A DNA stretch of 64,000 nucleotides from an uncultured virus (IMG/VR IMGVR_UViG_3300042287_000536) (taxonomy: Duplodnaviria; Heunggongvirae; Uroviricota; Caudoviricetes). The stretch lies in the IMG/VR virus record IMGVR_UViG_3300042287_000536; one strand, written 5' to 3'. The position numbers were made by a program, and so were the translations under genes. Below are positions 2,526 through 17,509 of this stretch, piece by piece. Every line of letters begins with the position of its first letter. Positions within the stretch are counted from its first letter, which is position 1. The notes under the pieces are model-generated. The model had not been told where the DNA came from, did no database searches, and saw only the letters and a program-made list of their open reading frames with translations.

Positions 2526-3097
2526 TAATAACCTATGGATTAGACAAAAAAGAGAATCTTAAATTAATTAAAGATTTTCATAGTAAAGCAATGTTGGAAA
2601 ATGGTGATGCTGATAGTATCATTATACCAAAAATGGCCTATAGGCCTACAGGAAAGACTGAAGTACATATCAGTTTTTTTCACAGTGAAATTAGTAGAGG
2701 ACAAGATCTTTTTATTGAGTTCACAAATAGAGACAATGTTCCAGAAGATATAGAGAGAGCTTTATATTTATGGAGATTCAACCCTCACTTTGATGAGGAG
2801 TATGAAAAAACAGAACCAGCTGCAGTAACAGGACACATAAGATATCTTGTACCTGTAGATGAATTAAAATTAATTAAGAAATATAGTATTTCTGAACCTA
2901 CTGTAGAAGCCCCTATTGCTCCTCCAGTTAAAACAAAAAAGATAGAGACAAAGACTATTGAAACTGACTTTGACTTGCCAGATTTAAGCTTAGATCCTCC
3001 TATTAATGAGATGACTATGCTAGATCTTGCAGCAATATTATTGAACAAACCAGTTAGTAAAAAAGAATGGCTTAATAACATAATAAAAAATAAATAA
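2522..3097 (+). CDS. Hypothetical phage protein
   Basis: 191-aa ORF coupled by ATGA/TAATG overlaps to both neighbours. Confidence 0.6.
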   Translation: MIITYGLDKKENLKLIKDFHSKAMLENGDADSIIIPKMAYRPTGKTEVHISFFHSEISRGQDLFIEFTNRDNVPEDIERALYLWRFNPHFDEEYEKTEPAAVTGHIRYLVPVDELKLIKKYSISEPTVEAPIAPPVKTKKIETKTIETDFDLPDLSLDPPINEMTMLDLAAILLNKPVSKKEWLNNIIKNK

Positions 3098-3726
3098 TGG
3101 AAAATAATGAAGTAATCAAAACAGAAGCAGACTTAAGTAAGTTTCTGACTACCTTAATTGACTCAAAGAAGTTACCTTCTCATATTAAAACTGTAGAAGA
3201 AGCTTTTACTATTGCTCAAATGGGTAAAGAATTAGGCTTTCCAACAATGCAAGCATTTCACTATATCATACCTATTCAAGGTAGATTAAGTTTAAGTGCT
3301 AAAGCAATTGGTGCATTACTAAGAAGAGGTAATATAAAGTTTTATACTAAAGAAGATGGTGTATATGTTTATCCTGATGGATCTACAGATATTATATCAC
3401 CAAAACCTGATGGTACTAAGCCAAGTGATAGAAGAACTACAATTGTTTTTACTAGAGATGGTATGAATGAAACATGTTCATTTACATGGAAAGATGCTAC
3501 TCTTCAAGGTTTAACTAGTAAGGATAACTGGACAAGAATGCCAAGAGAAATGCTTTATGCTAGATGTCTTGCTAAAGGTGCTAATAGAATTGGTGCTGAT
3601 ATGTTACTAGGTTTGTATACTGCAGAAGAACTTGCTGATACTTTCTTAAAAGAAGAACAAGTTAAAAGAAATGATGATGGTACAATCTCAGAAGTAGTAG
3701 ATACAAATTATACAGAAGTTAAATAA
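3097..3726 (+). CDS. RecT/Redbeta-like single-strand annealing protein
   Basis: GKELGFPTMQAFHYI..IQGRLSLSA, NW.RMPREML.ARCL....RIGAD.LLGLYTAEEL pattern. Confidence 0.7.
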   Translation: MENNEVIKTEADLSKFLTTLIDSKKLPSHIKTVEEAFTIAQMGKELGFPTMQAFHYIIPIQGRLSLSAKAIGALLRRGNIKFYTKEDGVYVYPDGSTDIISPKPDGTKPSDRRTTIVFTRDGMNETCSFTWKDATLQGLTSKDNWTRMPREMLYARCLAKGANRIGADMLLGLYTAEELADTFLKEEQVKRNDDGTISEVVDTNYTEVK

Positions 3727-4508: not shown

Positions 4509-5495
4509 ATGTTAAGAATAAAATCATTGATTACAAGTATAAGTGAGGTTCCTAGAGAATGGGTCTATGAACATTATTTAAACTTAACAGAAAAGCTGAG
4601 TGGACAAGACATAAAGATTAAATCAGTATTTAATCCTAATGACAAAACTCCTTCAATGTATGTATATTATTCAAAGAACACAACTTATAGATATAAAGAC
4701 TTTTCTACTGGTAAAACAGGAGATGCTTTAGATCTAATACAGCAGATGTTTAGCTTAAGTACTCGTGGAGAGACTGCTTATAAAATAATTGAAGATTACA
4801 ATACTTATACTCTTACTAATAAGGAAGATTATAGTATAAGAGAATTTAAAAGACAAACTAAATTCAAAGTAACAAACTTTGCTACAAGAACCTGGACTAA
4901 CCTAGATAGTAAATTCTGGGGTAAATTTCATATAGGCTCTAAACTTTTAGAGTTTTATAATGTAATGCCTCTAGCAGAATATAAACTTTCAAAAGAAGAA
5001 GAAGGTGAAATAAAGGAACTTACTATTAAAGGTAGTAATATATATGGTTACTTTAGAAAAGATGGTTTGTTGTATAAAATTTATCATCCCTATACAAAGG
5101 ATCATAAATTTATTAAGATAAAAGATTATACTCAAGGCTCAGACCAATTAACTATGGAATTACCATATCTAGTTATCTGTAGTTCATTGAAAGATATAAT
5201 GGCTTTTACTAAACTTGGATATAAAAATGCTGAGGCAATAGCCCCGGATAGTGAAAATGTTTTGATACCAGAACATGCTATCACAGCATATAAGCATAAA
5301 TATAAAGGTATCTGTACTTTATTTGACAATGATAATGCAGGAAAGGAATCTATGAAGAAGTATAAAGATAAGTATGGTATACCATATGTTATTCTTGATA
5401 TGTCAAAAGATTTATCTGACTCTGTAAGAGATCATGGCATTCATAAAGTTAAAGACCAGTTAACCCCTTTATTAAAAGAAAAGTTAAATGGATGA
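4509..5495 (+). CDS. dnaG: DnaG-like primase, crAss-type
   Basis: Degenerate zinc-binding domain SVFNPNDKTPS..YKDFSTG..GD; TOPRIM LVICSSLKD and LFDND.AG; KDLSD. Confidence 0.85.
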   Translation: MLRIKSLITSISEVPREWVYEHYLNLTEKLSGQDIKIKSVFNPNDKTPSMYVYYSKNTTYRYKDFSTGKTGDALDLIQQMFSLSTRGETAYKIIEDYNTYTLTNKEDYSIREFKRQTKFKVTNFATRTWTNLDSKFWGKFHIGSKLLEFYNVMPLAEYKLSKEEEGEIKELTIKGSNIYGYFRKDGLLYKIYHPYTKDHKFIKIKDYTQGSDQLTMELPYLVICSSLKDIMAFTKLGYKNAEAIAPDSENVLIPEHAITAYKHKYKGICTLFDNDNAGKESMKKYKDKYGIPYVILDMSKDLSDSVRDHGIHKVKDQLTPLLKEKLNG

Positions 5496-5625
5496 GTTTC
5501 AAGATTGGTTAATGACATTAGAACAACAGGACTTAACCAATGAACTTAAAATGGAAATACTTTCAAAGCTAGATAGACTTATTGATAAAGAATTAATAAT
5601 AATGTTAAAAAACTTAAAAGCATGA
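5488..5625 (+). CDS. Small 45-aa hypothetical protein (not in the ORF track)
   Basis: MDEFQDWLMTLEQQDLTNELKMEILSKLDRLIDKELIIMLKNLKA; fills the gap exactly, overlapping the primase stop and the next ATG (ATGA). Confidence 0.65.
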   Translation: MDEFQDWLMTLEQQDLTNELKMEILSKLDRLIDKELIIMLKNLKA

Positions 5626-6044
5626 GTTGGATATATAAAGGAAGAGTATTTGAAGATAGTGACATTCCAGAAAATGGAATAGGTTTCATATACCAAATGT
5701 CTGTTATACTTGATGGTAAATCTTATACTTACATAGGTAAGAAGAACTTCTTTTCTAATACTAAAACCAAACTTGCTAAGAAAGCTATCTCTACAGACAA
5801 GAGACTCAAAAAATACAAAGTAGTAACCAAATCTGCTTACCAAAATTACTATAGTAGTAATGATGTACTTAAAAAAGCACATAAAGATGGTATGCTTATT
5901 CAAAGAACTATCCTTAAGATATGCTTTAGTAAAACTGAATTAACTTATCAAGAAGTTAAACATCAGTTTGAACTAGGTGTATTAGAAAATGATATGTACT
6001 TGAATGGCAACATATTAGGCAGATTTTATAAACAAAAGAAATAA
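5622..6044 (+). CDS. Short GIY-YIG (Seg-like) endonuclease-family protein
   Basis: GFIYQM...YIGKKNF, YYSS, E..Q, N.NI motifs. Confidence 0.7.
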   Translation: MSWIYKGRVFEDSDIPENGIGFIYQMSVILDGKSYTYIGKKNFFSNTKTKLAKKAISTDKRLKKYKVVTKSAYQNYYSSNDVLKKAHKDGMLIQRTILKICFSKTELTYQEVKHQFELGVLENDMYLNGNILGRFYKQKK

Positions 6045-15299: not shown

Positions 15300-15469
15300 T
15301 GGCAGATAACACCACAGAAAACTTATTTAGTGCACAAGAGAATGAGCATAATAAGGTTACAGGTATAAAACCTACAGAAGTACAATTCAAAGTAGGAGCC
15401 CAACTTGATCTTGAAGATTTAATCAAGATAATAGAAAAGGAAGAAGCTCAAGAAAAACAAAAAAAATAA
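15299..15469 (+). CDS. Small 56-aa hypothetical protein (not in the ORF track)
   Basis: MADNTTENLFSAQENEHNKVTGIKPTEVQFKVGAQLDLEDLIKIIEKEEAQEKQKK; TAATG overlap with the polB stop. Confidence 0.6.
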   Translation: MADNTTENLFSAQENEHNKVTGIKPTEVQFKVGAQLDLEDLIKIIEKEEAQEKQKK

Positions 15470-15478
15470 AAAAAATAT

Positions 15479-15700
15479 ATGAAAACACTTAATGCACAAA
15501 CAAGTGAAGAAACATTTGATGATTTTACAGCAGTAGGAATTGCTGAAGGTTTTCTTGAGTGTGACTCTCAAGAAGACATGCTAAAAGCTTGGCAACACTT
15601 AGTTGACACAGGTTTAGCATGGAAATTACAAGGCTGGTTTGGAAGAACAGCTACAGATTTAATTAATGAAGGTTTAATCAAAGCTAAAACTATAAACTAA
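15479..15700 (+). CDS. Small phage protein (WQHLVDTGLAWKLQGWFGRTA family)
   Basis: 73-aa ORF with a Trp-rich motif I recall from diverse phages; function unknown. Confidence 0.65.
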   Translation: MKTLNAQTSEETFDDFTAVGIAEGFLECDSQEDMLKAWQHLVDTGLAWKLQGWFGRTATDLINEGLIKAKTIN

Positions 15701-15747
15701 TGATTATAGGTATATCTGGTAAACTGGGAAGTGGCATTTGTATATAA
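15700..15747 (+). pseudogene. Orphaned original 5' end of the dNMP kinase gene
   Basis: ATG at 15700 (TAATG coupling) reads MIIGISGKLGSG-ICI-stop, homologous to MILAISGRIGSGKD at 16474. Confidence 0.8.
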
Positions 15748-15768
15748 GAAAAAGATAATGTATATTTG
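15737..15768 (+). promoter_or_regulatory. Bacteroidota-type promoter carried by the endonuclease insertion
   Basis: TTTG at 15737-15740, 20-nt spacer, TATATTTG at 15761-15768, 4 nt before the ATG at 15773. Confidence 0.8.
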
Positions 15769-15772
15769 TATC

Positions 15773-16477
15773 ATGAAAACATATATTTATACATTATCTC
15801 ATCCTATTACTAATGAAGTACGGTATGTAGGTAAAACTGTAAACCCTAAACAGAGAAAACATAATCATAGCAATATTGCTAGAGATAAAGGTACTCATAA
15901 AAGAAACTGGATTAATTTATTAAAAACTCAAAAATTAAGACCCCTCTTTGAAATAATTGATGAGGTAGATTCTGATTGGAAGTTTTGGGAAAAATACTGG
16001 ATTTCTCAGTTTAAAGTTTGGGGATTTACTCTTTGCAATCATACACTTGGAGGAGATGGTCTTGAAACAGGTAATCAAACTTCTTTTAAAAAAGGGCAAA
16101 TTCCTTGGAATACAGGTATAGGTAATAAGAAAATATGTATTACATGTAATGAATCTTTTTCATCATGTGTTACTGCTCGTAAAATAACCTGTTCTAAAAA
16201 ATGTGCTAGTATATATAGATCTAAAAATCTGACAAAAACTGTTTTTAAAAAAGGATTTATACCTTGGAATAATGGAATAAAAGGATTTAAACTTAAACCT
16301 GATAAAAATGTATATCAATTTAATAAAGAAAAAACAATTATGATAAAAAAATGGAATACTGCTAAAGAAGCAGGATCTACCTTAAACATAAATGTAGAAG
16401 GTATAGGGCAATGTGCTAGAGAGGTTTCAAAATCTTCTGGTGGGTTTTATTGGACTTATAAAAATATATTACAATGA
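15773..16477 (+). CDS. Free-standing GIY-YIG homing endonuclease with NUMOD-type repeats, zinc ribbon and C-terminal HTH
   Basis: YIY...RYVGKT...R...H, E.YWI; duplicated FKKG.IPWN.G; CxxC...CSKKC; GGFYWTY. Start moved from 15731 to the ATG at 15773, after the promoter. Confidence 0.85.
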   Translation: MKTYIYTLSHPITNEVRYVGKTVNPKQRKHNHSNIARDKGTHKRNWINLLKTQKLRPLFEIIDEVDSDWKFWEKYWISQFKVWGFTLCNHTLGGDGLETGNQTSFKKGQIPWNTGIGNKKICITCNESFSSCVTARKITCSKKCASIYRSKNLTKTVFKKGFIPWNNGIKGFKLKPDKNVYQFNKEKTIMIKKWNTAKEAGSTLNINVEGIGQCAREVSKSSGGFYWTYKNILQ

Positions 16478-17124
16478 TTTTGGCTATTTCAGGCCGCATA
16501 GGCTCAGGAAAAGACACTGTAGGTTTAATTATACAGTATCTTGATTGGTTTAAAGCTGCAAATAGTCAAGGTTTATCTACTAATATGTCTTTTGAGGAAT
16601 GGGTAAACTTAAAAACTGCAGGTTATCCATTTAACCACAAACATTGGGAAATAAAAAAATATGCAGGCAAACTCAAAGAGATTGCTTGTATATTAACTGG
16701 ATGTACTTTAGAACAACTTGAAGATCAAGAGTTTAAGAAATTACAAATAGGTTCTGATTGGGGAATGACTTATAGAGAGTTACTTCAAAAACTTGGTACA
16801 GAAGCTATGAGAAATGGTTTACATGAAAATGTATGGGTCAATGCTTTATATGCTGATTATACTAACCAAAATTGGATTATTACAGACATGAGATTCCCTA
16901 ATGAGTTTGATGCTGTAAAATCTAGAAATGGTATTACTATTAGAATACAAAGATTTAAACAAATTTCTGAAAATATAAGAGTACATCATGGTATAGGAGT
17001 ACCACACCCCTCAGAAACAGCTCTTGATGATCATAACTTTGATTATGTGATAGACAACAATGGTAGTATGTCAGATTTGATAACTAAAGTAAGAGAAATA
17101 TTAACCCAAAATCAAATAATATAA
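16474..17124 (+). CDS. Deoxynucleoside monophosphate kinase
   Basis: ISGRIGSGKDT, RELLQKLGTE..R, IITDMRFPNE, H.SE..LD, I.NNG. Confidence 0.9.
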   Translation: MILAISGRIGSGKDTVGLIIQYLDWFKAANSQGLSTNMSFEEWVNLKTAGYPFNHKHWEIKKYAGKLKEIACILTGCTLEQLEDQEFKKLQIGSDWGMTYRELLQKLGTEAMRNGLHENVWVNALYADYTNQNWIITDMRFPNEFDAVKSRNGITIRIQRFKQISENIRVHHGIGVPHPSETALDDHNFDYVIDNNGSMSDLITKVREILTQNQII

Positions 17125-17125
17125 T

Positions 17126-17509
17126 ATGCAAGAGCAATTAAACAAGGTGGCTACATTCCACAGAGTATTCAAACAAAAAGATGGTACTGAACCTCAGTTA
17201 TTACCAGAAAATGATTTCTTATTAAGACATACACTTATGGCTGAAGAGAATGAAGAGTATTTAGAAGCTTGTAAACAAAAAGATATGATAGAAATAGCTG
17301 ATGCTTTAGGGGATCAGTTATATATCCTTTGTGGTACAATACTGAAGCATGGTATGCAAAACATAATTGAAGATGTATTTAATGAAATACAAGAATCTAA
17401 CATGTCCAAACTTGATGAGAATGGTGAACCATTATTCAGAGAAGATGGAAAAATCATGAAAAGTAACAAGTACTTCCCACCTAACATTGCAAGAATACTA
17501 AACAAATAA
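17126..17509 (+). CDS. MazG-like / PRA-PH family nucleotide pyrophosphohydrolase
   Basis: EE..EY, EIADALGDQLYI, SNMSKL, REDGKIMK. Confidence 0.85.
   Translation: MQEQLNKVATFHRVFKQKDGTEPQLLPENDFLLRHTLMAEENEEYLEACKQKDMIEIADALGDQLYILCGTILKHGMQNIIEDVFNEIQESNMSKLDENGEPLFREDGKIMKSNKYFPPNIARILNK

Follow-up and report, generated by a model that had tools for sequence, protein, structure and literature searches.

Free-standing endonucleases that spread with co-conversion of the DNA around them are well known in phages. SegF, which acts at gene 56 of phage T4 and was reportedly studied by Belle and colleagues in 2002, is said to be such a free-standing enzyme, homing without an intron, co-converting its flanks and leaving a donor variant of the target that resists cutting. 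For the endonucleases of ICP1 phages, one report speaks of "boundaries of exchange" (PMC10448857), and MobE is reported to split the nrdA gene of phage Aeh1 into two genes (PMC3045599). Outside phages, a report on the mORFs of fungal mitochondria (Allomyces macrogynus atp6 and Glomus atp6, atp9, cox2 and nad3) describes an endonuclease open reading frame (ORF) that brings along a foreign C-terminal gene piece, the native piece being left behind unexpressed (PMC3630166), and a review mentions, for Tremella, N-terminal duplications produced through intron mobility (PMC8393795). The locus described here lies in a 64,000-nucleotide stretch of DNA from an uncultured Caudoviricetes virus (IMGVR_UViG_3300042287_000536), the whole of which is called the window. 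In this lake crAss-like phage, a GIY-YIG endonuclease gene is most probably part of a free-standing cassette lodged at the Walker A codon boundary of a deoxynucleoside monophosphate (dNMP) kinase gene, where it leaves a stub of the resident gene and supplies a new start with no splicing. The papers listed by literature searches included no description of a phage endonuclease accompanied by a 5' stub and a duplicated gene start.

Organization of the Kinase Locus

All the features of the locus are on the + strand. It opens with a DUF7417 gene of 73 residues (15479..15700; PF24192, expect value (E) 7e-10), which ends in TAA and whose stop overlaps the ATG at 15700 of a kinase 5' stub in the sequence TAATG (15698-15702). 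The stub (15700..15747) reads MIIGISGKLGSG and, after a further ICI, meets its stop at 15745-47; it thus comprises 12 kinase codons (15700-15735) followed by three unrelated codons and TAA. The glycine (Gly) codon at 15733-35 is the last to resemble the kinase, the likeness breaking off where the Walker A lysine (Lys) codon would be or one base inside it. This break point (15735..15736), which separates the last Gly codon from the expected Lys codon position, marks the left end of the presumed incoming segment. Directly behind it come a promoter-like motif, TTTG-N20-TATATTTG (15737..15768), with TATATAA at 15741-47, and the free-standing GIY-YIG homing endonuclease gene (15773..16477; 234 residues; Pfam PF01541), a chimera as detailed below. 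The TGA of the endonuclease overlaps, as ATGA, the ATG at 16474 of a complete dNMP kinase gene of 216 residues (16474..17124; PF21448; phrog_139), which begins MILAISGRIGSGKDT and whose first codons (16474..16509) form a second, differently coded kinase N-terminus, MILAISGRIGSG. Stub and new start are alike in 20 of 36 bases and in 8 of 12 residues. A first-pass annotation, made from the letters of the window, had drawn this picture of TAATG coupling, stub, GIY-YIG gene, ATGA overlap and second start, and it is confirmed position by position; its claim that the endonuclease splits the kinase at the P-loop codons likewise holds, the gene sitting exactly at the Walker A codon boundary.

Two close relatives known from assembled genomes, L161 and L060, do not carry the endonuclease. 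Their flanks are 95-100% identical to the window and are interrupted by a clean gap of exactly 774 base pairs (bp; 15706..16479), a block bounded on both sides by the 7-bp repeat AATGATT (15699-15705 and 16473-16479), and in both of them the same TAATG junction passes from DUF7417 directly into the kinase. The window itself has a guanine-plus-cytosine (G+C) content of about 30%; its + strand carries a replication module, and its - strand has ORFs of very large size (up to 3673 residues). It is contained in a 102-kb IMG/VR record, in which the endonuclease gene is present in one copy, and its DNA is found in lake-water metagenome runs.

Origin of the Two Kinase Starts

The fate of the resident gene can be followed in L015, a locus with a related endonuclease, by comparison with L246 and L247, which have none. 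Upstream, both are 100% identical to L015, and their kinase is intact; the first 30 bases of this intact kinase are those of the L015 stub, and the last three stub codons differ. The whole L015 kinase behind the endonuclease is 52-67% identical to the L246/L247 kinase, and identity is back to 98-100% inside the next gene. This pattern means that the endonuclease came in together with an entire kinase allele of foreign origin and that only the first codons of the resident survived, endonuclease and whole kinase having been exchanged between identical flanks. Presence and absence of the endonuclease between near-identical genomes, with co-conversion of the flanks, is therefore found both for the window against L161 and for L015 against L246. 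Separately, L245 shows a second diverged tract relative to L246 (568-1767 of L245; 48-85% identity), inside the DNA polymerase B region of genomes that are otherwise identical, which may be another exchange boundary.

For the window, the relevant evidence comes from lake metagenome run X16, where a contig of 968 nucleotides matches 15486-15734 with five differences, none of them in the stub, continues with 59 letters that fit nothing on the window and were left unread, and resumes at 16643-16706 without a difference and with no endonuclease. The frame is kept by arithmetic and the length equals that of the L060 kinase to that point, and the contig has the appearance expected of an intact stub-type allele. 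The invaded form is present in the same run, as a contig over 15967-16657; window parts without cover in runs X14-X16 were not counted as evidence. In L165, the relative that comes next among those with DUF7417-kinase synteny, the kinase start is of Lys type and agrees with the stub in 28 of 37 bases by hand count. On the basis of the L015/L246/L247 comparison, the X16 contig and L165, the stub is read as the probable remnant of the resident kinase allele, and L161 and L060 are best read as cases of later endonuclease loss between the 7-bp repeats. The first-pass annotation had expected endonuclease-free relatives to have a contiguous stub-type kinase, an expectation borne out by L246 and L247 (for L015) and, as it appears, by the X16 contig, and contradicted by L161 and L060, two of the three endonuclease-free relatives of the window, which have the new-type start.

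The stub 29-mer had no match in IMG/VR; a first IMG/VR kinase scan, which used word patterns from variable regions and overlooked L015, L017 and L060, returned 13 loci of at most 49% identity, none with an endonuclease; and with DUF7417 as the anchor, this kinase was nearby in only 4 of 160 loci. A different insertion was met at this spot in L164, a relative of the clade to which the window belongs, where another endonuclease-like gene (2788-3357; 189 residues; phrog_1035 "endonuclease VII" and HNH families, E 3e-15; no family in Pfam at E up to 5) lies between DUF7417, the last third of which is diverged, and a kinase that starts MQNKKINFIGISGRIGSGKDT. The kinase start is a hot spot for elements of different kinds.

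The new start carries marks of a different origin. Compared with L015, the window has an identity of 0.77 over the stub; beyond the break, the leader and the first 370 endonuclease bases reach 0.90-0.98, after which identity falls. Compared with L017, values of 0.72-0.90 hold between about 16261 and about 16530, a stretch that takes in the endonuclease end and the new start, and then drop to 0.42. Being L015-like in its 5' part, up to about 16146, and L017-like in its 3' part, from about 16261, the window endonuclease is a chimera of two lineages. The new start, 75-85% identical to the downstream copy of L017, forms one tract with the endonuclease 3' part. Its G+C content is 0.47, against 0.30 for the window, and it uses CGC, GGC and TTG; CGC had been noted as very rare in the window, and in fact makes up 5 of the 630 arginine (Arg) codons of 42 ORFs. 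Its synonymous-codon score of -20.15 is the lowest of 42 gene starts, with a median of -8.98 and a value of -14.51 for the stub. Judged by these measures, the new start is a diverged, oddly coded and compositionally foreign allele. At loop position 8, Arg replaces Lys in three of six endonuclease-linked copies (window, L017 and L122) and in none of five stubs (hand count), which is at most suggestive of a resistance change. The import was not a 12-codon patch made for the purpose: a foreign kinase allele contributed a piece whose length varies, amounting to the entire gene in L015 and to no more than about 170 bases in the window.

Variation is also seen elsewhere in this region. The kinase is a mosaic: the window, L161, L060 and L164 diverge strongly over two segments, 16510-16642 and about 16800-17030, which vary in length as well as in sequence, with the rest of the gene 91-99% identical. 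A contig from X9 follows the window to 16116 and rejoins it at 16643, the letters between being unread, and hints at a population variant with another endonuclease 3' half.

Recurrence of the Layout in Other Phage Lineages

Scans of IMG/VR gave 44 loci with a relative of the endonuclease, which together with the window form an examined set of 45. A Walker A ORF lies directly behind the endonuclease in 19 of these, and in three more (L122, L123 and L136) when judged by eye. The order of stub, endonuclease and complete kinase is found again, behind different upstream genes, in L015/L016, L017-19, L122 and L123, the first two groups containing the closest relatives of the endonuclease (61-66% identity). 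The L015 stub, MAIIGISGKIGSG, is followed by ICI and a stop, and the complete kinase behind it starts MAILALAGKISSGKDT; in L017 the stub MGNNLIAISGKINSG is followed by a stop, and the complete kinase starts MILGISGRINSGKDT. The stubs of L122 and L123 are equally clear. Kinase likeness stops after the last loop Gly codon in the window, L015, L017 and L123, and the L122 stub extends one codon, that of Lys, beyond this place. The likeness of the window stub region to the downstream N-terminus was reached by none of 200 shuffles; across the loci, all 200 were beaten in eight and all but one to three in four more, the rest being weak. The shuffle result and the recurrence in other lineages together imply that the layout is not due to chance. 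More distant relatives of the endonuclease (35-43% identity) precede other small kinases, with NG..GKD, GSGKD, RHGKDT or GTVGSGKS loops, and have stub-like pieces upstream. Orphan 5' kinase stubs, for which the first-pass annotation had proposed a survey, are thus present in several phage lineages.

Some of these loci have peculiarities of their own. The kinase copy behind the endonuclease has an insertion of 5 or 6 bases between the last Gly and Lys codons in L122 (3080-3160) and L123 (3140-3210), resulting in a frameshift in the former and an in-frame TAA in the latter, so that stub and full copy are broken at the same point; the insertions may be a cutting scar or a means of target destruction. 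In L136 (2380-3620) the same layout is found at another kinase family, with a stub ..FPKLLIIGSGRHG followed by LVTF and a stop, and a downstream copy MKTRKSKFPRLLVLGNARHGKDT that is then shortened by an apparent 7-base tandem duplication. Distant endonuclease relatives in L151, L154 and L156-L158 (about 40% identity over residues 18-96) precede ORFs starting ..KIVVIGAGVAG, a Rossmann-type glycine loop and not a Walker A motif, and in L156 no more than 2 of 200 shuffles reached the upstream likeness.

Most loci, even at 35-43% identity (window 15737-15747, L128, L127, L131, L125, L133, L139, L137 and L135), have a T-run followed by TATATA(A) directly behind the break and ahead of the endonuclease ATG, and its TAA ends the stub frame in several; a promoter, a terminator of the stub frame and a conserved cassette end are candidate roles. 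The TTTG-N20-TATATTTG motif that the first-pass annotation had pointed out after the break is indeed there. TTTG/TAnnTTTG is the promoter consensus of Bacteroidetes, and the motif, which L015 shares at the corresponding position and which has a counterpart in the TAnnTTTG box before the endonuclease ATG of L122, L123 and L124, is a possible promoter. Only 4 bases separate the box from the endonuclease ATG. The pattern is not enriched in the window, where its 8 matches, against 3.9 expected, are within chance (6 of 100 shuffles reach 8).

A Model for the Spread of the Cassette and Its Alternatives

The layout suggests the following course of events. The enzyme would cut endonuclease-free stub-type kinase alleles in or near the P-loop codons, and the break would be repaired from an endonuclease-bearing genome, with the stub that the donor itself carries as partner of the left end and the kinase body as partner of the right. 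As a result of this pairing, the copied segment would run from the break point through a short A/T-rich leader and the endonuclease gene to the new kinase start with a variable length of donor kinase. The first 12 codons of the recipient would stay as a dead stub, coupled to the upstream gene, and the kinase would be read from the second start overlapping the endonuclease stop, its translation coupled to that of the endonuclease through the ATGA overlap and splicing being unneeded. A crossover inside the stub would fit L015, where 30 resident stub bases are followed by nine that differ. The new start would resist cutting. As the most conserved part of the target is carried on both sides, the cassette could pass from one phage to another that has no further similarity around the kinase. 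Finally, the 774-bp loss between the 7-bp repeats in L161 and L060 would leave an allele that is expected to be immune. The interpretation given by the first-pass annotation is thus supported in the main, with two corrections: the variable length of the foreign allele and the existence of endonuclease-free relatives with the new start.

Several points weigh against this model. That the new start resists cutting is presumed from its divergence, and stub-type and new-type alleles share the downstream bases AAAGACACTGTAGG. The X16 evidence is one short-read contig with its 59 middle letters unread. The comparison of L017 with L006 involves distant phages (26% and 42% protein identity) and carries little weight, a search for closer relatives of L017 having returned only itself and one 41% match. 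The downstream kinase copy of L122 and L123 is itself broken at the P-loop, which means that the cassette does not always keep the kinase whole, and the promoter-like motif is not significant by count and leaves just 4 bases before the ATG. To these must be added that the endonuclease-free L161 and L060 have the downstream-type kinase N-terminus, joined by TAATG to DUF7417; taken alone, the two genomes make the new-type start the native one and the stub the foreign one.

The stub could then have come with the endonuclease, in a cassette of donor stub remnant, leader and endonuclease inserted by recombination at an L161-like kinase start codon through the 7-bp AATGATT microhomology that bounds the 774-bp block, a scenario with which the 99% identity of the L161 kinase to that of the window over 16500-16700 agrees. 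We nevertheless regard it as unlikely. A stub-type allele apparently continuous with the kinase is found in the same lake runs (X16), and the stub is less like L015 (0.77) than are the adjoining leader and endonuclease (0.90-0.98), so that it was not inherited together with them. In addition, the L015 stub is demonstrably that of the resident, no gene start in the window is coded more atypically than the new one, and it is the stub that the Lys-type start of L165 resembles. We therefore retain the resident origin of the stub.

A far less probable arrangement is an endonuclease within a self-splicing intron, with the mRNA spliced from the stub to the Lys codon. Small upstream "exons" beside phage endonuclease genes are known, as in the ICP1 terminase (PMC10448857). 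At the present locus, a search of Rfam at E up to 10 over 15400-17200 found no intron, giving four chance-level small-RNA matches (E 1.5-7.4) far below their gathering scores, and at the gathering score nothing was found in six related loci. The non-coding room amounts to 25 bases between the stub stop and the endonuclease ATG, and downstream of the endonuclease there is none. An ATG belongs to the second start itself, which serves as the gene start in L161 and L060. Furthermore, a U is expected at a 5' splice site, and the stub ends in U at no junction that would keep the frame. There is, in accordance with the first-pass annotation, no sign of an intron at the locus, splicing appearing to be excluded by the anatomy of the genes rather than by RNA.

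Finally, the stub might be an ORF that arose by chance, or the product of a local tandem duplication of the kinase start in which the endonuclease played no part. This reading has in its favor the shortness of the stub and the commonness of P-loop motifs, and is scarcely credible in view of the shuffles (0 of 200), the same break point in several lineages, the contrast of L015 with L246/L247, all of which contradict it, and the presence of two copies so little alike between flanks that are 95-100% identical to relatives.

The Endonuclease, the Kinase and a Second GIY-YIG Gene

The GIY-YIG catalytic domain of the endonuclease (PF01541) occupies residues 3-81, with E 4e-6 and 27.4 bits against a cut-off of 22.6, and the protein also matches phrog_5123, "homing endonuclease with GIY-YIG motif" (E 3e-4). 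Y6, Y18, R28, H32, E73 and N89, which would be the catalytic positions of I-TevI, are invariant among 16 endonuclease homologues. Judged on its domain and on these invariant residues, the endonuclease looks intact. Its predicted structure has a mean predicted local distance difference test (pLDDT) value of 73.6, exceeding 90 for residues 181-230, and combines a confident N-terminal domain with a confident helix-rich C-terminal module. A Foldseek search with this model gave no match at E <= 0.001; above that threshold, the I-TevI domain structures 1ln0 and 1mk0 were recovered with a target-normalized template modeling score (TM-target) of 0.60-0.63 and E 0.16-0.42, and I-HmuI (1u3e) with E 0.015. 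A sequence search of the PDB with the endonuclease returned nothing meaningful, and Pfam at E up to 5 found no DNA-binding family in it.

The kinase, a dNMP kinase of the T4 gp1 type, belongs to PF21448 (E 4e-12) and to phrog_139 (E 3e-42 over residues 1-212), and its Walker A motif, GRIGSGKD, is intact at residues 7-14. Among GenBank phages, blastn with 15300-17300 gave a single 138-base match in one record, and tblastn with the kinase matched 632 records, all below 60% identity and the best at 37.6%, with no close cultured relative.

A second GIY-YIG gene, of SegE type (PF19835, E 3e-20), is present in the window at 5622-6044, between a Toprim-type gene and DUF6878, and is preceded with an ATGA overlap by a 45-codon ORF (5488-5625). 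It has no clear stub in its neighborhood, the likeness of the upstream region to the start of the next gene being reached by 8 of 300 shuffles.

Significance and Comparison with Described Systems

More tentatively, a single endonuclease lineage may be portable between unrelated phages by means of two homology arms of its own, the stub and the full Walker A copy, and may follow the P-loop into other small kinase families, with three homing states coexisting in the lake population. These states would be a sensitive stub-type allele (X16), the invaded allele (window) and a presumably immune allele that has lost the endonuclease (L161 and L060), and they appear to coexist and might be tracked through time. 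If this is true, the Walker A region would be usable as a homology arm, as the one stretch common to all these kinases. Homology carried on both sides suggests a route for crossing between unrelated genomes. Beside introns and inteins, and beside lodging between genes, the locus shows a third way in which a homing endonuclease can live in an essential-type phage gene, that of bringing a spare start and abandoning the old one. Orphan P-loop mini-ORFs in phage annotation, as well as mosaic kinase alleles between near-identical phages, find an explanation in it, and the allele states coexisting in public lake metagenomes make the cycle of gain and loss directly measurable.

Among described systems, the phage T4 genes such as SegF reportedly share with this locus a free-standing GIY-YIG gene beside its target gene and a spread by double-strand-break repair with co-conversion, proposed in the case of the kinase gene. 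Those genes lie between intact genes and are not known to leave a stub, whereas here the insertion is inside coding sequence and the cassette duplicates the gene start. The case of Tremella is likewise reported as one of 5'-end duplication and partial foreign gene replacement driven by a homing element, but it concerns an intron in a fungal mitochondrion (PMC8393795). Like MobE in nrdA of Aeh1, the present endonuclease gene lies inside a gene of nucleotide metabolism without an intron; in nrdA, however, both pieces are reported to be needed and to reassemble as protein, while here the upstream piece is redundant and a full gene follows (PMC3045599). The mitochondrial mORF gene hybrid is the nearest described system, and the phage case is its mirror image at the 5' end. 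In these hybrids, an endonuclease ORF is likewise combined with a foreign, diverged gene terminus and a native remnant near-identical to an element-free relative, and there is no intron; the hybrids differ in replacing the 3' end, in an ORF that is often in frame with the host gene, and in residing in an organelle genome (PMC3630166). At the kinase locus, by contrast, it is the 5' end that is replaced, the three ORFs are separate, the host is a phage, and a Walker A codon serves as the site in several families of kinases.

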